The notes beneath the pieces are model-generated. The model was not told the DNA's origin. It worked only from the letters and a program-made list of their open reading frames with translations, and did not search any database. DNA of 64,000 bases from Calditrichales bacterium (GTDB lineage Bacteria > Calditrichota > Calditrichia > Calditrichales > J004), in assembly GCA_015493745.1 (NCBI GenBank), contig WGCN01000013.1, forward strand, positions 10,733 through 74,732. Reading direction: 5' to 3'. Positions 35,278-43,654 of the stretch are shown here, one piece after another. The translations under genes were made by a program, and so were the position numbers. Each line of letters starts with the position of its first letter. Positions within the stretch are counted from its first letter, which is position 1.

Positions 35278-38200
35278 CTATCTCAGACGTGCCCGCACCG
35301 CCGTGTTGTCACGCATGCCCGCCGCCCGTTCACGCAGATCGAAATCGAACAGGACCCCCATATAATAGCGCCACTCGCGCGGATAAGTGACCGGGCCGTT
35401 ACGGGCCACATCCAGGGGCCAGGCGGCCTGAACAAAAATACGTGTCGGAAACATGTTATAGGAATAGGTATCCAGCCTCAGCTCCATACCCACATCTCTT
35501 TTAAAATCCCTAAAGTCCACCCGCGTTTCATTAAAGGCGTTGCCCGCCTCAAAAAAGAGCCCGGCAAAAAGCTTGTCAAAACGTAAATGCCCCAAACGCC
35601 AGTTTAGCCCGCGGCTGATGGGAAAGCGGTAATTCAACGCCCCGATCAGTTTCTGCCGCCCTTCGATACTGTAAAAAGGATACCCTTTTAAACCGATCAG
35701 ACCACCGGCAAAATAGTTAAAAAAACTGGCCACCGGACGATCGATATAGCCGCTTTTTAAACTGATTCCCAGGGCATGCTGTTCCAGCCAGGGATTGGCC
35801 AGGTACAACTCCCCGTTAAATTCCAGACTGTTAAAGCTATACCGCTTGAATTCCTCCAGACCCAGTTGCCGGTTGGTGGAAAATCCCTGCAGGAAATCAT
35901 TATCCTCATAACCGTACTTAAAAAAGAGATAGTAACCCGATGACGGGTTAACCGCGGCATAGCGGTCTTCTCCCAACCGATCCAGAATAAGTTTAAAGTG
36001 CAGCGCCTGACCGCGTAAATAATCATAGCGAATGGTCGGCACATAGAGAAGACCATCCGTGGGCGTGTTCAGCGTTAACGGATCCAACTGTGCCGAATAG
36101 CGGCTGCCGGTATAGGTCAGGCTGAGATGCATCTTTTCCAGGGGAATATAGCTGACGCCGAAACTGTATTGCAACAGGTTAAAACCGACATTGCGCACAC
36201 CGCGCACCACATAGCCGCGATCCAGTTCCAGGGTATCCTTGATATTGGCGGAAGAGTTGTAAAACTCGGCAAAAAAGGTGGGCGCCAGTTTTTTATACTC
36301 GGCATAGGCATACAGGTCATAATCCAGGTCTTTGTTTGCCGATACTCCGGCCACCAGGCTGAGCTGATCGAGCACATCGGAACTGGTTACATAAAATCCG
36401 GGCTTAATGGTACCGTAGTCAATGAACAGACGCGGTAGAATTTGTGTGCGGGTAAAGGTGGTTTTATAGGGACGCGTCTGATACACCGGTATGACATCAT
36501 CATTAAAATTCTTTTCCGGCACGGAAGCCGGATAGTTTTCATCATAGCGGGCCAGGGTTTTATCCAACGGATGGGGATTTTCCATGAAGGCCAGCTTATA
36601 GCCGATACTGTCGTAACAGGCATAAACCAGCTCTCCGGCGGGGTTTACCGAGGGCATAAAGGCTCCGCCGGTTACATTGGTCAATAACTCCGGTTTTCCA
36701 TTATTATGGCGCAGGCGATAGATGTTATAGATCCCCGTGGTACTGGCGGCATAATAGAGCCACTGACCGTCGGGGCTGTAAACGGGATAACGCAACTCCT
36801 CCTCGGCCTGCAGCAACAGGCTGAACTCCCCGGAATCCATATCATACCGGCCGATGTTGCGGCCATATTCCACGGCGGTGCCAAACACAATCCGCCGGCC
36901 GTCGGGACGCCAGCGGGGATGATAGATCTGACGGCCATCCTCAAAAGCCAGCAGTTGTTTCAGCTCATCGGCCCGGACACGCACATCGCGCTGATAGATC
37001 GTTTTTGCCTTATGCTTTAACAGCTTACCCGTGGTAACATCAAAAGCGACCTCTAGCCAGGCGTTTCCTTCCATGTCCCCCGGCAGATGCAGCACGTTCA
37101 GGGCATGCAACCCATCGGTTGAGCTGACAAAGGCGATCGAGCGTCCGTCCGGCCCAAAGGATGGATTCGATCCCCGCAGACCGTAACTTAGCCGTATCTC
37201 CCGTTCCTTTTCCGTATCCCACAGATAGAGATCGTTGAGGGAAGACATATGCCGGTTACGATCCTGCCGGGCATAAACCAGGTAGCGGCCATCGGGCGAC
37301 CAGGAAAGCGAGGATGAAACGCCGCGTACGGGTAACTCTTTCTTATCGCCTGTTTTCCTGTCCCAGAGGAGGATGCGGTTTTGAGAAAAATAATCGCGGC
37401 CCTTGTTGCTCACCCAGGCCACACGCCCGCCGGCGGGATCGAAAACCGGGTAGAGGTTGGCAAAACCCTCTTTTTCAATCAGGCGGCCCTTAACCTCATG
37501 GGCACGGATGCTTTCGGTCTGCCGGGTATAGCGTTGCCAAAGTTGCCGTTTCCAGCGTTGATACAGGCTGTCCACCGGGGTTCCGGTGGCTTCCTCTATG
37601 GCCCCGTCAAAGGTATAGCTGCTCCAGTGACTATCGATTTCCGTAATATCCGAAAGCACCTTTTCCCCATACTGCTCTACCAAAAAATTAACAAAGGAAA
37701 AACCCTGATTATAACTGGATTCGTTACCATGGCTGGTTTTACCAAAAATGGACATCTCGTTAAGCGTCAGTAAGCGGTTATACAACACACGGTCGCGCAA
37801 AATCATCTCCCGGTGCGGATCGCGATAGTCATAACGGGCCTTATCGTTTTGATGCTGGGCGGTCCCCTCGGCAAACCAGACCGGCATGTTCACCGAGCTG
37901 ACCGGATAGGAAACCAAAACATTGGGGAAACCGCGCACCACATCTTTTCGCCGTTCCTTTTCATAGCCAAACCACTGAATAAAGCCGTAGGGAAAGGTCA
38001 TGCTGGATTTTATTATCTTTTGAATGTTGACCATATGCGTAAACTCATGGGTCAGCACATCGCGCAGCCAGTTCTTGGTTCCGCGCATCACATAATCCAG
38101 ATTGGTGGCCCAAATCTCGACTTTATTGTTAAAAAAGAAAGCGCCGCCGTTGGAATAGTCGTCCGTATCCCGCAGAATCAGGTGCAGCTTGTCCTTGGGC

Positions 38201-38424
38201 TTAAAATCATAGGCATCGGTAACGGCGGGGTAAATCTCCTCGATGATCCTGGCCGCTTTAAAAGCCGTTCGTTCCGTGCCCTGATGATAATGCACCGTAA
38301 AGTGTTCCGTATCAAAGGAGCGCCATTCCAGCTCGGGGTGATTATATTGGTCATAAAGCTGGGCCCGGGCGGTTCCGCCTAAAAAGGCGAGTAACAGAAG
38401 AAGAGGAAGAAGGCGTTTTATCAT
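35278..38424 (-). CDS. multidomain envelope protein: gluzincin-like HExxH region, TolB-type (PD40) beta-propeller repeats and a C-terminal beta-barrel-like region
   Basis: 1048 aa. Signal peptide. VLTHEFTHMV...WFAEGTAQ. PD40-like repeats (WSPDGRYLVYA, FGPDGRSIAFVS, WRPDGRRIVFG, YSPDGQWLYYA). The last ~400 aa are rich in alternating aromatic beta-strands. The start codon overlaps the stop of the upstream gene at 38424. Confidence 0.8.
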   Translation of the reverse strand: MIKRLLPLLLLLAFLGGTARAQLYDQYNHPELEWRSFDTEHFTVHYHQGTERTAFKAARIIEEIYPAVTDAYDFKPKDKLHLILRDTDDYSNGGAFFFNNKVEIWATNLDYVMRGTKNWLRDVLTHEFTHMVNIQKIIKSSMTFPYGFIQWFGYEKERRKDVVRGFPNVLVSYPVSSVNMPVWFAEGTAQHQNDKARYDYRDPHREMILRDRVLYNRLLTLNEMSIFGKTSHGNESSYNQGFSFVNFLVEQYGEKVLSDITEIDSHWSSYTFDGAIEEATGTPVDSLYQRWKRQLWQRYTRQTESIRAHEVKGRLIEKEGFANLYPVFDPAGGRVAWVSNKGRDYFSQNRILLWDRKTGDKKELPVRGVSSSLSWSPDGRYLVYARQDRNRHMSSLNDLYLWDTEKEREIRLSYGLRGSNPSFGPDGRSIAFVSSTDGLHALNVLHLPGDMEGNAWLEVAFDVTTGKLLKHKAKTIYQRDVRVRADELKQLLAFEDGRQIYHPRWRPDGRRIVFGTAVEYGRNIGRYDMDSGEFSLLLQAEEELRYPVYSPDGQWLYYAASTTGIYNIYRLRHNNGKPELLTNVTGGAFMPSVNPAGELVYACYDSIGYKLAFMENPHPLDKTLARYDENYPASVPEKNFNDDVIPVYQTRPYKTTFTRTQILPRLFIDYGTIKPGFYVTSSDVLDQLSLVAGVSANKDLDYDLYAYAEYKKLAPTFFAEFYNSSANIKDTLELDRGYVVRGVRNVGFNLLQYSFGVSYIPLEKMHLSLTYTGSRYSAQLDPLTLNTPTDGLLYVPTIRYDYLRGQALHFKLILDRLGEDRYAAVNPSSGYYLFFKYGYEDNDFLQGFSTNRQLGLEEFKRYSFNSLEFNGELYLANPWLEQHALGISLKSGYIDRPVASFFNYFAGGLIGLKGYPFYSIEGRQKLIGALNYRFPISRGLNWRLGHLRFDKLFAGLFFEAGNAFNETRVDFRDFKRDVGMELRLDTYSYNMFPTRIFVQAAWPLDVARNGPVTYPREWRYYMGVLFDFDLRERAAGMRDNTAVRARLR

Positions 38425-41270
38425 CAGTGTACCACAAGAATCTTAATAATTTTACTTTCTGTTTTACCACCGGCCTCGGCCCTTACTTCGCAAAGATAAA
38501 CTCCGGAAGCCACATTGCCCACCTGCCACTCCACCTCGTTATAGCCGTTCAGACTGCCGGGCGCGACAAACTCATCCACCATAAATCCGGAACCGTCAAA
38601 AATACGTATGGTTACAATGGCTCCCTGCGTCAGGTAGTATCGGATGCGGGTTTTGTTGTTTTTGGCCGGATTGGGGTAATTGTAGACACGTTTCGCATCC
38701 AGGATAAAACGGGGCGAACTGTTGATGGCGCCGGGGCGGAGTGGAAGGGCGCTGTGTGCGGCGTCTCCCCTAACTCCGTTCCACAGTACTTTAAAATCAT
38801 CGCTTGCGGGCAGTTCCCAGCCATAAACAAAACCGCTGTCGGTAACAACAACAAGTTCGGCCGCCGCATCGTCATCCCATTGCACGATACGGGCATTTTG
38901 CGAAACCTGCCCCCCGGCAACCAAAGGGAATCCCTCCAGGGGAAGCGCCGAGGCATCATAGCCGTACACAACGCCTTTATTGCTGACCGCGAATATACGC
39001 ACGGCCTTTTCCTTATCCTGCAACAACAGAGGTACTCCCGCAAAGTTCTCATCCGTATCCGGGGCCAGGCTTACGGGAAAACCGCTCAGTAAAACCCCGT
39101 TCAGTTGAAAGGCATACAGTTCTTTATCCCGCGCAAATACAAAATCAACAATACCATTGCCGTCTACATCGGCAGTGGCAAAACCGTGATCCAGTGAGTC
39201 GGCAATATCAAAAGAGACCCTGCCGCTTTCCACGGAGGAGAAACGACGCTCCCTGTTATCAAAACGCACTTCGCGCAGGGCGCCGTCGGCATCGTAAAAA
39301 AGGCGGCTGAAGTCAAAGGCGTCGCTGCTGTTCTCCGGCAGGGTAAAGCCGGGCGTGGCATCCCTGAGGGCAATATTGTAATCGATGACCTCTTTCTGTC
39401 CGTCCCAGGCAATTTTCAACAGCTGGCGCCCGGCGGGGATAAATAGCCCCTCCGTGCCGGCAACGGGAAGACCGCTGACGCCTGAGAGAGCCAGCGGAGA
39501 GAACAAAGGTTGTGCCGGGGACGTCAGCGGAGCCGCCAGTGGATAGGCAAAAAGAGAATCCCCGGATACAATGATCAGGGCATCATAAAAGCCGTTTTCA
39601 TTCCTGTCGGCCAGGGTAAGCGAAACCGGAGGGGAAACCGGTAGCGGCCAGCTTACGGAATCGGTTTCGGAAAGGACGGTCAGCCGACCATTGTCCGTCA
39701 ACACAAAAAGGTGGTCCCCGGCGGCATTTTCGATGGCGCCGGCGGTAAAGGCCAGGGGCCCGGACGGCAGTGTCCGGGGAAAACCGGTTTCAAAATATTC
39801 CCGTTCAAAGGAAAAGGTCATGCGGTCGCCAAAGGCTTCACCGAAGTCGAAGATTTTAACTCCCGTAGGCGCGCGCCGGCGGTAGGAATTGCTGTTGGGG
39901 GTGCTGCCGGCCGAAAACTCATTTTTATACACCGGAGAGGGATTGGATTTATACCAAAAGTCGATGGGCGTACCCAGCTCCGATTGAAATCCGGCGTCGA
40001 GGATGGAATAGGCCTGGCCGATATCCTGGCTGCCGTCGGCCTCTTCCAGATCCACGGCCCGGTGGGCGGGATCGTCATTGATAAACCCCTCGGCCTGTTC
40101 GCGGATAACGGAGCGATCGATATGCCAGATAAGCATGCCCGCGCCGCCAAGACCCCAGTCGTAATTTTCCACAGCCAGCAAAACCCCGCTGGAATCGGAA
40201 ACGGTGATGCGATCGGCCAGATAGGTTTGCAACACCTCCATATAATTGGCCGTTGTTTCCCGGTCTCGGGAGAGCTCGAACTGCAAACTGTCCAGATAAA
40301 CCGAACGGTCGCCCCGGTATTCCAACAGGAAGGACTCGTCCTCATTAAGCGGTATTTCATATATGGAGGGTTCCGAGCCATTTTGCAGATAGCGCGGCAA
40401 TTGCAGGGAGGAGGCGGAAGTTGTTATTTTCCGGGCCTGCTCCCAGTTTACAGCTAAACGGTTAAAGGCGCTTGGCGGGGCCGGAATCAGTCCGGCGGCA
40501 TTAAGCAGCCCGACATCCATCAGGCCAAAACGGCCCACGCCGGATCGTCCTTCGCGCACGCTGACCAGGTCTTTCATCCCCAGATAAGAGCCGATATTGG
40601 AAACCACAAAACCGGTCAGCGCCAGATCGTAACCGGCCTGGTTTTGTGTTTCGGGCAGGAGAACTCCCCGGGTTACGGTAAAACGGCCGTCATCCACGGA
40701 GATACCGTTAAAATCCGCCCCCAGGTTATCCTTAAGAAATTTTGGGGTCAAAAAGAGCGAGGGAATATCCTGGGGGGTCTCATCAAACCCCAGATCCACA
40801 TCGCGCCCTACCCCGGCGTGAAAAATCATTACCAGGTCGTAGTCGGCAAAGGTCAGGGCGGAATCTTCATCGGCCAGAAGGATTGCGTCCCGGAACAGGC
40901 GGGCCACTCCTTCATCAATGGCGGCGTTGCTGGTATTGGGATTGTAAAAGGCCATCTCATTGGGCAGCGTATAGGCCGCATTCAAGCCCCGGGGGAAGAT
41001 CGTCCCCTTAATGCGTACCTGCCCGCTGGAGACCGCGTTAAAATAGTTGTCGGCGGCAATAATCTGATCGTTAAAATAGGTACGGTTATGGGGCGCCGGG
41101 TCAATGGCAAAGGGACGGGTGGTAACCGTATCGATCATAAACCGGCCATTGCCCGTGGTCAGGCTGTTATTGTCCTCCTGGAACTGGACACGCAAAACAG
41201 CGATACGCACCGTCGTGGCGGAATGCGCCCACAGGGATAAAGTAAGCAGAAGCAGTATTATGCGTTTCAT
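38424..41270 (-). CDS. M6 (immune-inhibitor-A)-like secreted protein with degenerate active site, FG-GAP-like repeats and T9SS type-A C-terminal domain
   Basis: 948 aa. Signal peptide. N-terminus VRIAVLRVQFQEDNN and MIFHAGVGRD resemble M6-family proteins. At the expected HExxH position the sequence reads GFVVSNIGSYLGMKDL. DVDGNGIVDF. CTD VYNYPNPAKNNKTRIRYYL...VASGVYLCEVRAEAGGKTESKIIKILVVH. Confidence 0.75.
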   Translation of the reverse strand: MKRIILLLLTLSLWAHSATTVRIAVLRVQFQEDNNSLTTGNGRFMIDTVTTRPFAIDPAPHNRTYFNDQIIAADNYFNAVSSGQVRIKGTIFPRGLNAAYTLPNEMAFYNPNTSNAAIDEGVARLFRDAILLADEDSALTFADYDLVMIFHAGVGRDVDLGFDETPQDIPSLFLTPKFLKDNLGADFNGISVDDGRFTVTRGVLLPETQNQAGYDLALTGFVVSNIGSYLGMKDLVSVREGRSGVGRFGLMDVGLLNAAGLIPAPPSAFNRLAVNWEQARKITTSASSLQLPRYLQNGSEPSIYEIPLNEDESFLLEYRGDRSVYLDSLQFELSRDRETTANYMEVLQTYLADRITVSDSSGVLLAVENYDWGLGGAGMLIWHIDRSVIREQAEGFINDDPAHRAVDLEEADGSQDIGQAYSILDAGFQSELGTPIDFWYKSNPSPVYKNEFSAGSTPNSNSYRRRAPTGVKIFDFGEAFGDRMTFSFEREYFETGFPRTLPSGPLAFTAGAIENAAGDHLFVLTDNGRLTVLSETDSVSWPLPVSPPVSLTLADRNENGFYDALIIVSGDSLFAYPLAAPLTSPAQPLFSPLALSGVSGLPVAGTEGLFIPAGRQLLKIAWDGQKEVIDYNIALRDATPGFTLPENSSDAFDFSRLFYDADGALREVRFDNRERRFSSVESGRVSFDIADSLDHGFATADVDGNGIVDFVFARDKELYAFQLNGVLLSGFPVSLAPDTDENFAGVPLLLQDKEKAVRIFAVSNKGVVYGYDASALPLEGFPLVAGGQVSQNARIVQWDDDAAAELVVVTDSGFVYGWELPASDDFKVLWNGVRGDAAHSALPLRPGAINSSPRFILDAKRVYNYPNPAKNNKTRIRYYLTQGAIVTIRIFDGSGFMVDEFVAPGSLNGYNEVEWQVGNVASGVYLCEVRAEAGGKTESKIIKILVVH

Positions 41271-41299
41271 GCGGTTTTCGGTATTTCGGTAATATGTGT

Positions 41300-41326
41300 A
41301 AAAAAAGCCCCGTTTACACGGGGCCG
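41300..41326 (-). terminator. rho-independent terminator between the PorV-like gene and the M6-like gene
   Basis: Minus strand has stem GCCCCG-UGUAAA-CGGGGC followed by U7, 10 nt after the PorV-like stop. Only about 30 nt remain before the next ATG (41270). Confidence 0.65.
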
Positions 41327-41335
41327 GGTATTTTT

Positions 41336-42430
41336 TTAGAAATGAACAGCCAGCGAATATCGAATGGTATCGGAGAGGGGGCTGTCTTTGTCGTCGGAGA
41401 TATATCCAAAGTCAAAGTTGAATATATTGTATTTCAGACCGGCGCCAAAAGTCAGGAACTGACGGCCGCCAAAGTTTTTATTTTCATAAAAATAGCCCGT
41501 TCTGAGAGCGATCAAGTCGCCATACCAGTATTCCAGACCCAGGGAGTGGGTGATGGCGTTCAGACGATCGGAAAAACGGCCCTTAAACCAGCTGGAATAA
41601 AAAGCGGCGGTGATAAAATTCTCCGCTTTATCCCCATCGCGCCGGTAAAGCGGTTTGTTGGCGTCGTAGGTGACGGTCATCTTGTTAAACTCATCATCGA
41701 TCAGCTTATAGGCGATTCCGATGCGCAGGTTGGTGGGCAGGGGATCGGACTGGGCCTCGTCATTATAAAAAATGGCCGGCCCGAAGTTGGACATATTGGC
41801 GCCAAAGGTCAGTCGGTTTTCAAAAATCTCATAATCCGGCATCCACATAACGCCTACATCTACCGCCACGCCGGTGGCCCGGCCGTTGGTGCTTTCGTTA
41901 CCCACGTTTATACTTTCGGGGGCCAGCTCGCTGCGGATAATCTTCAGATTAACCCCGATACCCAGGTTGGACTTTAGCTGGGTGGCATAGGATAAGGTAA
42001 AAGCATATTCCTGCGAACGGAAACGGTCATATTCCTGACCGGTGGTGCTGGTGGCTACGTTTTCGCCTAGATTAAGAAAGGTGATGCCCGCGCCCAGCAT
42101 GCCGATGCCATCCACATAGTAACGGGCAGCCAGGAAATCATAGAACAGATCGCTAAAGTTAAATTGCGGCAACCACTTGGCATGCATCAGGGAAACCTCA
42201 CCCCGGGAATCTATCTCGGGATCAACATACTGAAACGCCAGTCCGGCCGGGTTCCAGTAAACGGCCGTGGCATCATCGGCCAGGGCCACGCCGGATTCAC
42301 CCATACCGCCGGAACGGGCGCCGGGATTAATCAATAAAAACGGAACCGCCGCTTCACCGGGGCCCTGCGCATAAAGCAGGGACGAGAAGCTCATCAGCAG
42401 GGTAAACATCAAGAATAAGCGTTTAAACAT
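41336..42430 (-). CDS. PorV/PorQ-family outer-membrane beta-barrel protein (paralogue 3 of 4)
   Basis: 364 aa. Signal peptide ...LLYAQGPG. GARSGGMGESGVALADDATAVYWNPAGLAF. Ends ...RYSLAVHF. AAGGAGGA SD. Confidence 0.8.
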   Translation of the reverse strand: MFKRLFLMFTLLMSFSSLLYAQGPGEAAVPFLLINPGARSGGMGESGVALADDATAVYWNPAGLAFQYVDPEIDSRGEVSLMHAKWLPQFNFSDLFYDFLAARYYVDGIGMLGAGITFLNLGENVATSTTGQEYDRFRSQEYAFTLSYATQLKSNLGIGVNLKIIRSELAPESINVGNESTNGRATGVAVDVGVMWMPDYEIFENRLTFGANMSNFGPAIFYNDEAQSDPLPTNLRIGIAYKLIDDEFNKMTVTYDANKPLYRRDGDKAENFITAAFYSSWFKGRFSDRLNAITHSLGLEYWYGDLIALRTGYFYENKNFGGRQFLTFGAGLKYNIFNFDFGYISDDKDSPLSDTIRYSLAVHF

Positions 42431-42449
42431 TGGAAATCCTCCTTAAAAT

Positions 42450-42496
42450 AAAAAAACCGGTTAAATGGAAAGCCTACCTGTTCCACTTAACCGGTT
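42450..42496 (-). terminator. strong intrinsic-terminator-like hairpin in the leader of the PorV-like gene
   Basis: Minus strand AACCGGUUAAGUGGAA-(loop)-UUUCCAUUUAACCGGUU forms a stem of about 16 bp followed by U7, then AUUUUAAGGAGG and the ATG. Confidence 0.7.
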
Positions 42497-42557
42497 TAAT
42501 GAGTGCCGGGATATAAGCTGCCTGTTAAAGGTAGTACTTTCCTAATATTCTTCAAAA

Positions 42558-42569
42558 CAAGTACAATTA
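42558..42569 (-). repeat. 12-nt direct repeat TAATTGTACTTG, copy 2 (inside the leader)
   Basis: Exact 12-mer also present at 42656-42667. Confidence 0.6.
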
Positions 42570-42629
42570 AAAATCAAGTTCCTTTAACAAACGACTTATA
42601 TGCTTTTCTCCAAAATTTGTTTAGGTCAA

Positions 42630-42658
42630 AATATAAAGTGACCACTCTCATAAGTCAA
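42630..42658 (-). promoter_or_regulatory. near-consensus sigma70-type promoter (TTGACT, 17 nt, TATATT)
   Basis: -35 at 42653-42658 and -10 at 42630-42635, spacer exactly 17 nt. Located 30 nt downstream of the accA stop. Confidence 0.5.
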
Positions 42659-42667
42659 GTACAATTA
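42656..42667 (-). repeat. 12-nt direct repeat TAATTGTACTTG, copy 1 (overlaps the -35 hexamer)
   Basis: Exact 12-mer repeated 98 nt downstream at 42558-42569. Possible operator pair. Confidence 0.6.
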
Positions 42668-42688
42668 TGCCCGCCGGAGTTGGCAGGC

Positions 42689-43654
42689 TTACTCTACAAA
42701 GGCACCCATACTACTGTACTTTTCCAACCTTTGTTCAATAAGTTTATCCGTCGGTAGTTTTAACAATTCCTTTAGATGGGAAACGATGGCTTTTTTTACC
42801 GCCTGTGCGGCCAAATCGGGATCATTGTGGGCTCCGCCCTCGGGCTCCGCGATAACCTCATCCACGATTTTCAGTTTGACCAGATCGGGAGCGGTAACCT
42901 TCATCGCTTCGGCGGCCTGCGGCGCCTTGGCCGCATCCCGCCACAGGATGGCGGCGCAGCCTTCCGGGCTGATAACCGAATACCATGCATTTTCCAGCAT
43001 GAGGATCCGGTCTCCCACGCCAATGCCCAGGGCACCGCCGGAAGCTCCCTCGCCAATCACCACGGTGATGATCGGCACCGGCAAACGGGCCATCTCGAAC
43101 AGGTTGCGGGCAATGGCCTCGGCCTGTCCCCGTTCCTCGGCCCCCAGGCCGGGATAGGCGCCCGGGGTATCGATCAGAGTGATGACCGGCTTGTTAAACT
43201 TGGCGGCCAGCTCCATCACACGCAGGGCCTTGCGGTAACCCTCGGGATTGGGCATGCCAAAATTACGGTGAAGATTGCTTTTGGTATCACGCCCTTTCTG
43301 CTGCCCGATGATAACCACAGAGTATTTATCCAAACGCGCCATGCCGGAAACGATGGCATGGTCATCGGCAAAACGGCGGTCCCCAAACAGCTCATCAAAG
43401 TAACTGGTCATGCGTGAAATATAATCGAGAGAATAGGGGCGCTTGGGATGACGGGCCAGTTGCACCCGCTGCCAGCGGCTGAGGTTGTTGTATATTTCCT
43501 TGCGCAACTCGGCGGCTTTTTCCTCAAGGCGTTTTATATCATCGCTAAGATCCATCCCGGTTTTTTCGGCGTAGGCATGCATCTCTTTTATTTTTTCTTC
43601 CAGCTCATGTACCGGCTTTTCAAACTCCAGTACCACTTTGGCATCTGAGGACAT
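42689..43654 (-). CDS. accA: acetyl-CoA carboxylase carboxyltransferase alpha subunit
   Basis: 321 aa. LARHPKRPY..., [12 protein letters not shown], typical AccA length and termini. Confidence 0.95.

Follow-up and report, generated by a model that had tools for sequence, protein, structure and literature searches.

A structured leader RNA upstream of PorV genes in Calditrichia and related lineages: a candidate transcription attenuator

We analyzed the intergenic region between accA and a gene for a PorV-family outer-membrane protein of the T9SS (type IX secretion system) in a 64,000-nt stretch of DNA from a Calditrichales bacterium (assembly GCA_015493745.1, contig WGCN01000013.1, positions 10,733 to 74,732; hereafter the window, with positions counted from its first letter). 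The region covers 258 nt on the minus strand (42431-42688) and contains, in the direction of transcription, a promoter, a long helix that we call P1, a hairpin with a U-tract that we call T, and the Shine-Dalgarno (SD) sequence of the PorV gene. The same layout was found in more than 30 loci, 22 of which were analyzed in detail. Its carriers are Calditrichia, KSB1 and unclassified metagenome-assembled genomes (MAGs), irrespective of the gene upstream; taxonomy throughout is that of the MAG labels. P1 and T covary, as does an alternative helix that joins the 3' side of P1 to the loop of T. The balance of this evidence leans modestly toward the "PorV leader" being a cis-acting transcription attenuator of a new RNA family.

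Architecture and conservation of the PorV leader

Transcription of the leader would start at a near-consensus promoter. As the initial annotation of this DNA had proposed, TTGACT (42653-42658, minus strand, as are all leader coordinates below) and TATATT (42630-42635) are separated by 17 nt and lie 30 nt past the accA stop, matching the consensus at 10 of 12 positions over 42658..42630. This is the best promoter-like site within 40800-43200, and the transcription start site (TSS) is predicted near 42623. The two hexamers are conserved as a pair 22-43 nt upstream of the GC box that opens the leader RNA motif; TTGAC(A/T) stands at the equivalent position in 21 of 22 leaders, and TAnA(A/T)T is kept 16-19 nt after it.

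The single-stranded 5' part of the leader contains a purine box, GGAG (42608-42611). In alignment A1, nearly every sequence has GGAG or GAGG 4-7 nt ahead of the GC with which the conserved box begins. This GGAG resembles an SD sequence, without a usable start codon behind it (NUA UAA), and inspection revealed no start-stop open reading frame (ORF) there. It could be part of a recognition site, or a ribosome or standby site. Leader-peptide attenuation, as in the trp, his and leu/phe leaders, has alternative hairpins and an intrinsic terminator in common with the PorV leader, but the conserved leader ORF of those systems is absent here: no start codon follows the SD-like AAAGG in 6 of the 22 leaders, and the ORFs elsewhere are 1-52 codons long and not conserved.

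The initial annotation had recognized a 9-bp helix (42581-42589 with 42523-42531) and an inner helix, GUACUU/AAGUAC (42564-42559 with 42539-42534). Both pairings are real, and the former is the core of the longer P1, which comprises 21 positions (42601-42581 with 42531-42511) with one mismatch and three G.U pairs. The full extent of P1, the invariant box in its 5' strand and the alternative helix to the terminator loop had all been overlooked. The 5' strand of P1, GCnUAUAAGnnGUUUGUUAAAGG, is nearly invariant and lies within the box GCAUAUAAGUCGUUUGUUAAAGG (42581-42603), whose invariant alignment columns are G1, C2, T4, A5, T6, A8, T13, T14, G16, T17, T18, A19, A20 and G22. The GCnUAUA of this box is invariant even in those leaders in which it is unpaired in the minimum-energy fold (L015-L018, L020 and L022, where L numbers denote the individual loci), and it is therefore constrained by something besides pairing in P1. 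Readings of the box as CsrA-type GGA sites, as an anti-SD sequence or as a -10-like pause were discarded, as none of these features proved consistently conserved when judged by inspection only. Between the strands of P1 lies a variable apical part (42532-42580), which includes the GUACUU/AAGUAC hairpin; its length and sequence differ among lineages, and a local hairpin is usually predicted in it.

The 3' strand of P1, CCUUUAACAGGCAGCUUAUAU (42511-42531), shows compensatory changes and also many changes from U-A to U.G. It drifts between A and G while keeping G.U pairs, and the changes from U-A to U.G are confined to this strand; alignment columns 13/100, 14/99 and 17/96 contain 5-7 U.G pairs each. 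Because these changes would be A.C mismatches on the opposite strand, the structure must be that of an RNA on the PorV sense strand. The predicted stability of P1 is -22 to -35 kcal/mol across the leaders.

T is a 17-bp hairpin consisting of a 5' arm, AAACCGGUUAAGUGGAA (42497-42481), a 10-nt loop (42480-42471) and a 3' arm, UUCCAUUUAACCGGUUU (42470-42454), with a U7 tract that ends at 42450, so that arm and tract together occupy 42450-42470. It folds at -24.2 kcal/mol in the window and at -17 to -26 kcal/mol across the leaders, and a 15-19-bp G+C-containing stem followed by U6-10 is present in 22 of the 22 leaders analyzed. By this signature T is predicted to be an intrinsic (Rho-independent) terminator, although a simple terminator scanner passed over it because its loop is longer than 8 nt. 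It was correctly placed directly ahead of the PorV SD in the initial annotation: T ends 5 nt before the SD, AAGGAGG (42438-42444), and 19 nt before the ATG at 42430. GGAGG is conserved 9-29 nt past the U-tract, and the distance from the end of the U-tract to the PorV ATG is 9-29 nt across the leaders. This gap leaves no room for a promoter between T and PorV. The intergenic region as a whole folds at -76.8 kcal/mol, compared with -54.3 +/- 4.6 kcal/mol for dinucleotide shuffles (z = -4.9; 0 of 200 shuffles as stable).

These structures could also form a 5' untranslated region (UTR) that does not terminate transcription at all. Such a UTR would stabilize or process the mRNA, as in ompA-type leaders or through cleavage of P1 by RNase III, or it would tune translation, and the U-tract would be an upstream translation enhancer rather than a termination signal. 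Genes for outer-membrane proteins often have long structured 5' UTRs, ompA being an example, and PorV is an abundant outer-membrane protein. The PorV leader resembles the ompA-type leaders and the small-RNA-targeted leaders of such genes in this respect; the length of P1 would suffice for RNase III to cleave it, and a U-rich tract lies close upstream of the SD. However, those leaders lack an intrinsic terminator with a U-tract, whereas in the PorV leaders this canonical terminator signature is universal, and selection for an alternative helix that would exclude the other two is left unexplained. We consider this explanation very unlikely.

To compare the leaders, we took 19 PorV loci from one-genome-per-species contigs and examined the 330 nt upstream of PorV. 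The Calditrichia loci, the KSB1 locus L020 and the unclassified MAG loci L018 and L022 share one plan. Its 5' part is TTGAC(A/T), 16-19 nt, TAnA(A/T)T, about 25-35 nt, GGAG, and GCnUAUA(A)GnnGUU(U/C)GUUAA(A/C)GG; its 3' part is 45-65 variable nt, the complementary strand, a short linker, the 15-19-bp hairpin with U6-10, GGAGG and the ATG. A pattern by which the leader can be recognized is GCNTATAAGNNGTTTGTTAAAGG. The accA gene adjoins the leader only in the closest relatives, is 450-900 nt further upstream in other Calditrichia and is absent within 3 kb in L016-L023. T is thus not merely a distant terminator of accA, since it persists where accA is not the neighbor.

RNAalifold recovers both P1 and T. 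In the 21-sequence alignment A2, pairing over the 38 pairs of P1 and T amounts to 85.8%, and it is 31-56% with the partners displaced by 1-3 columns. Changes on both sides are seen in 16 pairs, and none of the 500 shuffles attains any of five measures, with the reservation that our permutation and shuffle tests correct only partly for phylogeny and that the alignment of the variable interior is approximate. The helices proposed for the window are therefore conserved and covarying in related genomes.

The element is also specific to PorV. A scan of metagenome DNA for the 5' box pattern alone, which did not start from PorV, gave 81 matching stretches, 80 of which were read. Twelve of the 80 had the complementary strand and a terminator, and all 11 of those with downstream sequence encode PorV; 68 were chance matches within coding sequence. 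A covariance model built from 21 leaders, whose E-values are rough, gave exactly one sense-strand match per PorV locus, at 53-133 bits, and no comparable sense-strand match elsewhere in 434 kb that included the 64-kb window. What else the model matched consisted of palindromic echoes on the antisense strand, at about 19-47 bits, and a small number of weak hits of 33 bits or less in the chance-match loci. The sense scores are far above those of the antisense echoes, which again identifies the structure as a sense-strand RNA. The covariance model and a fuzzy search were also used to look through the window and all of the loci for further copies of the element or a partner acting in trans, and nothing turned up beyond the copy at PorV and the palindromic echo of that copy.

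This distribution bears on a suggestion of the initial annotation, that the unit from promoter to terminator is an independent small RNA (sRNA). It would then be a stand-alone gene of about 175 nt upstream of PorV whose product acts in trans; the helices would serve the sRNA, and PorV would be expressed by constitutive leakage through T. The element does have its own near-consensus promoter and strong terminator, both of them conserved, and T stays the thermodynamically preferred fold. The sequence of T and the 22-nt box are also unusually conserved, as they would be in an RNA with a trans function. Yet the element was never found apart from PorV, which makes independence less likely; T is always 9-29 nt from the PorV ATG, and PorV has no other promoter. 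In addition, the most conserved stretch is buried in the 21-bp P1 rather than accessible, which is atypical for a seed. We regard a stand-alone sRNA as unlikely, but a dual role, as an attenuator in cis and a released sRNA, is possible.

Our first PorV homology search recovered only relatives of at least 56% identity and no wider taxonomic range, whereas a second search, from the PorV of L023, the most distant locus, did reach a wider range. L023, L107 and L108 have a diverged yet recognizably homologous leader, GGAG-UUUnUAUAG-UUUCAUUUG(C/U)UAAGC..., with P1 and then a terminator. L109 has another variant, GCGUAUACAAUUCGCUAAUCG ... followed by a terminator and U9, which is probably a homologue. 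In L023 (2600-2700; lineage labelled Bacteroidia), L107 and L108, TTGACA is found upstream and CTT(T/C)TT..TG, not TAnAAT, is at the -10 position; in the L023 lineage the sequence possibly represents a -7 box like that of Bacteroidota (TAnnTTTG type) or the site of another sigma factor. There is no leader where PorV is directly behind PorU (Peptidase_C25), an arrangement of some KSB1 or unclassified genomes that is represented by L111 and L112, with spacers of 34-45 nt, and by L113, with a spacer of 223 nt. The leader thus goes with PorV genes that have their own promoter.

An alternative helix and a possible mechanism

The loop of T is conserved and contains AGGUAG in most Calditrichia; terminator loops do not usually show such conservation. 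Its complement, CUACCU, stands at the top of the P1 3' strand, and the complementarity extends beyond these nucleotides. In the window, the 5' strand of the resulting alternative helix is GGAAAGUACUACCU (42529-42542), which overlaps the top of P1, and the 3' strand is AGGUAGGCUUUCC (42467-42479), which consists of the T loop and the upper 3' arm. The helix has 13 bp and a predicted energy of -18.3 kcal/mol, compared with -5.8 +/- 2.4 kcal/mol for shuffled partners. It is 12-16 bp long and has about -15 to -22 kcal/mol in most leaders of the Calditrichia type, in which the sequences differ (GGAUUCGUCUACC/GGUAGACAAUCC in L097, AAUCUGUC/GACGGAUU in L017 and GAAGAUCAUCCUUU/AAAGGAGGAUCUUC in L090); it is weaker in L017 and L070.

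Covariation of this helix was evident with one representative per lineage: cognate partners had a mean energy of -13.7 kcal/mol, permuted partners had -9.5 +/- 0.8 kcal/mol, and 0 of 20000 permutations were as low. A column count on alignment A2, which is imperfect because bulges shift the register, gave 70.9% paired for the alternative helix and 36-53% for slid partners. In L018, L020, L022 and L023, the interior of P1 pairs instead with the T loop and the 5' arm of T, and in L018 this pairing reaches 22 bp and -28.9 kcal/mol. From their sequences, these four leaders appear to follow the same logic in another register.

The alternative helix and the top of P1 rule each other out, and the apical part of T would be excluded as well, either through shared nucleotides or sterically. 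Since the upper stem of T also covaries, the same nucleotides appear to be kept in two pairings that cannot coexist, which would be the signature of a switch. Furthermore, the conserved nucleotides that are unpaired when P1 and T are folded (UCUR CC and AGGUAG) are all accounted for by the alternative helix, which favors an RNA switch over a ligand pocket. Our first guess at an antiterminator, in which CCUUUAAC of the P1 3' strand would pair with GUUAAGUGG of the T 5' arm, was rejected; this pairing is weak, bulged and not conserved in L097 or in the KSB1 type.

A switch of this form could still be a riboswitch for a metabolite or an ion, with a ligand that binds, for example, at the junction where the T loop docks on P1 and shifts the balance between termination and read-through. 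The alternative pairing of three helices with a long-range loop contact is like that of expression platforms and kissing-loop designs, and the conservation is strong across phylum-level distances. In the cobalamin riboswitch, a kissing loop forms between the aptamer and the hairpin of the expression platform, and in platforms of this type, as in the PorV leader, the regulatory hairpin makes a covarying contact, through its loop, with an element further upstream in the sensor domain. However, the PorV leader has no recognizable aptamer or pocket nucleotides; once P1, T and the alternative helix are accounted for, no conserved internal-loop or junction nucleotides are left, and the interior of P1 is variable. 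Its hairpin is a terminator and does not sequester the ribosome-binding site. The leader accompanies one structural gene, not the genes of a metabolic regulon, and no Rfam riboswitch matched it. A riboswitch is therefore highly improbable.

The attenuator that we favor would work as follows. A transcript of about 175 nt would be started by the sigma-70-type promoter and would fold into P1, with its variable apical hairpin, and then T. PorV, the M6-like gene and the Peptidase_MA/propeller gene that follow would receive only transcripts that read through T, since T abuts the PorV SD without room for an intervening promoter. P1 would be the anti-antiterminator, the alternative helix the antiterminator and T the terminator. 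P1 is transcribed first and is very stable, so the default co-transcriptional path should be formation of P1 and then T, leading to termination and a short RNA. Read-through would be favored when the 5' box (GGAG...GCnUAUAAGnnGUUUGUUAAAGG) is held by a trans-acting factor. Candidates for this factor are a protein or an sRNA and, as a further possibility, RNA polymerase or a NusG-type factor. Occupation of the box during transcription of the 45-65-nt spacer would leave the P1 3' strand available for pairing with the loop of T. The argument of the initial annotation, that the lack of a promoter between T and PorV implies attenuator or riboswitch logic, gains from the conservation of the whole unit, from its covarying helices and from the alternative helix.

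Several observations weigh against this mechanism. When the 5' strand of P1 was masked, T was still the minimum-energy fold in 18 of 22 leaders and the alternative helix formed in only 4. A simple equilibrium switch is thus unsupported, and antitermination would have to be kinetic or assisted by a factor. P1 and T are both very stable. Although the alternative pairing overlaps the 5' arm of T in L018, L020, L022 and L023, in the Calditrichia it takes only the T loop and the upper 3' arm and leaves up to 13 bp of the lower T stem beside the U-tract, and this remnant could still terminate. The alternative helix might also coexist with both lower stems as a pseudoknot, with no switch. Nor is there an obvious sense in placing a core T9SS component behind a default-off terminator. 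The TSS is a prediction, as are termination at T and read-through, and the comparisons revealed no trigger.

Another conceivable mechanism is processive antitermination. Here a specialized factor would be brought to RNA polymerase by the invariant box, either in the form of RNA or, at a pause near the promoter, as non-template DNA. Neither the leader terminator nor the one behind PorV would then stop the polymerase, allowing expression of the M6-like and MA/propeller genes, which lack promoters of their own. The factor could be a NusG/UpxY/LoaP-like protein or a Q-like protein, or the RNA itself could act, as in put and EAR. Known leaders of this kind include lambda nut and put, the EAR of Bacillus eps, LoaP hairpins, the UpxY-dependent 5' UTRs of Bacteroides capsule operons and RfaH ops. 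NusG-family antiterminators such as UpxY act on long 5' UTRs in the related phylum Bacteroidota, and NusG paralogues are common in the Fibrobacterota-Chlorobiota-Bacteroidota (FCB) superphylum, to which the host belongs.

As in those systems, the PorV leader is a long 5' leader with a conserved element, followed by terminators inside an envelope or surface operon. The window has two serial terminators in one apparent operon with no room for internal promoters, and the invariance of GCnUAUA even where it is unpaired indicates sequence-specific recognition beyond pairing. On the other hand, the covarying helix between P1 and the T loop has no counterpart in the known leaders and is not explained by processive antitermination itself. 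The TATAAG of the box lacks the final T of a -10-like pause element, no gene for a factor was seen, although no search was aimed at one, and the PorV leader shows no similarity to ops, EAR or put, as judged from the lack of a match in Rfam, where models of the EAR and JUMPstart/ops types are to be expected. We consider processive antitermination decidedly unlikely.

Relation to known regulatory leaders

No known element in Rfam 15 matched the leader. In the region 41000-43000 of the window at E<=10, the best scores were 12-21 bits, compared with gathering scores of 37-90; nine related loci gave 0 matches at E<=1, and the whole 64-kb window gave 0 matches at gathering thresholds, tRNAs not being scanned separately. 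Full-text searches of the literature turned up neither a leader RNA of PorV nor any control of T9SS genes at the RNA level. We classify the leader as a new RNA family because the features by which membership can be tested assign it to none of the known families, and from its sequence it would work by a known kind of mechanism.

Its closest likeness in design is perhaps to the protein-dependent attenuators, such as the PyrR-controlled pyr leaders, the trp leader bound by TRAP, and the RAT sites of BglG and SacY. Common to these and the PorV leader are three overlapping helices, predicted in the PorV leader to exclude one another, a terminator that abuts the start of the gene and, possibly, a box for a protein. 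The PorV leader differs in having no sequence similarity or Rfam match to them and in regulating an outer-membrane protein of a secretion system. In addition, the antiterminator of the Calditrichia PorV leaders takes the loop and 3' arm of the terminator and not its 5' arm.

Regulation of the T9SS is known almost only from the Bacteroidota, where it involves PorXY/SigP and extracytoplasmic function (ECF) sigma factors. We know of no regulation described for the T9SS of Calditrichota or KSB1, which use sigma-70-type promoters and SD sequences. If the attenuator is real, then the amount of the PorV shuttle, and probably also that of its M6-like partner, would be set at transcription elongation. 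The leader is a well-supported addition to the structured RNA families of uncultured phyla, and its design, with a near-invariant helix strand and a covarying contact to the terminator loop, is unusual. We put forward more tentatively, at somewhat less than even chances, that the PorV leader belongs to a new class of riboregulators and is the first element described as controlling a T9SS component at the RNA level. This class would be a three-helix switch whose sensor is the 22-nt invariant box and not a ligand pocket. A trans factor (a protein, an sRNA or a NusG-type antiterminator) would read the box and so determine how strongly PorV and its partner cargo genes are expressed in Calditrichota, in KSB1 and in uncultured lineages related to them.

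Genes and other features of the PorV locus

The gene downstream of the leader (41336-42430, minus strand) encodes a 364-amino-acid outer-membrane protein of the PorV/PorQ family (Pfam PF19572, 1.2e-30). It scores 318 bits with the NCBIfam PorV_fam model (cutoff 90) and 247.9 bits with the PorV equivalog model, slightly below the cutoff of 250. Together with the T9SS context, in which a cargo gene with a Por_Secre_tail domain comes next, the family models identify the product as the probable PorV, the outer-membrane shuttle of the T9SS. Contigs of GCA_011051485.1 and of further assemblies carry identical genes; the labels of the nearest relatives are Calditrichia or Calditrichaceae.

The next gene (38424-41270, minus strand) encodes an M6-like, inactivated metalloprotease homologue that is T9SS-dependent and carries Por_Secre_tail (NF052323, 533 bits, cutoff 600). 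It is followed by a gene for a Peptidase_MA/beta-propeller (TolB-like) protein, recognized by profile matches (35278-38424, minus strand), which overlaps the stop of the M6-like gene. The M6-like gene was next after PorV in 17 of 17 loci checked, at 34-74% identity, and the pair extends to lineages in which PorV is only about 41% identical (downstream regions of L007-L023). This conserved pairing suggests a functional partnership between the two proteins rather than a random cargo.

The second terminator of the initial annotation, after PorV, is present as well. This terminator-like hairpin (41299-41325, minus strand) has an 8-bp stem with 6 G-C pairs (41325-41306) and a U7 tract ending at 41299, and lies 28 nt before the next ORF (ATG at 41270). 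A comparable hairpin with a U-run is found behind PorV in about 13 of 17 loci, as read from the sequences and folds of each locus. A step-down in expression from PorV to its partner genes is plausible from this arrangement.

An exact 12-mer, TAATTGTACTTG, does occur twice, at 42667-42656, where it overlaps the -35 hexamer, and at 42569-42558, in the apical part of P1. The proposal that the copies form a pair of operator sites did not hold up, as they are not conserved in orthologous regions: the first copy has 2 mismatches in L007 and L008, whose PorV loci are 95% identical, and the second is gone in L019. An exact direct repeat of at least 12 nt also appears in about 2% of Markov-1 simulations of the region, which makes it only nominally unusual. 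We treat the pair as lineage-specific.

The accA gene itself occupies 42689-43654 on the minus strand. Right behind its stop is a G+C-rich hairpin, GCCUGCC..GGCGGGC (42669-42688, minus strand), which is predicted to have 7 bp and no U-tract and is not kept in L007 or L019. It is not a canonical terminator, and accA has no obvious terminator otherwise, so that accA transcripts may enter the PorV leader and end at its terminator. Antisense to the leader and to the accA 3' end is an 84-amino-acid ORF with a GTG start (42503-42757, plus strand). This ORF is probably spurious, given that the leader is conserved in the manner of an RNA structure on the other strand. Several Calditrichia loci, represented by L014 and L015 (approximately 2700-2760, upstream of the leader promoter), have a small gene between accA and the PorV leader. 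The encoded protein, with the C-terminal sequence ...(E)DDIPIML(I/L)xEAE, is Trm112/YcaR-like in appearance, and the gene is missing from the lineage of the window.

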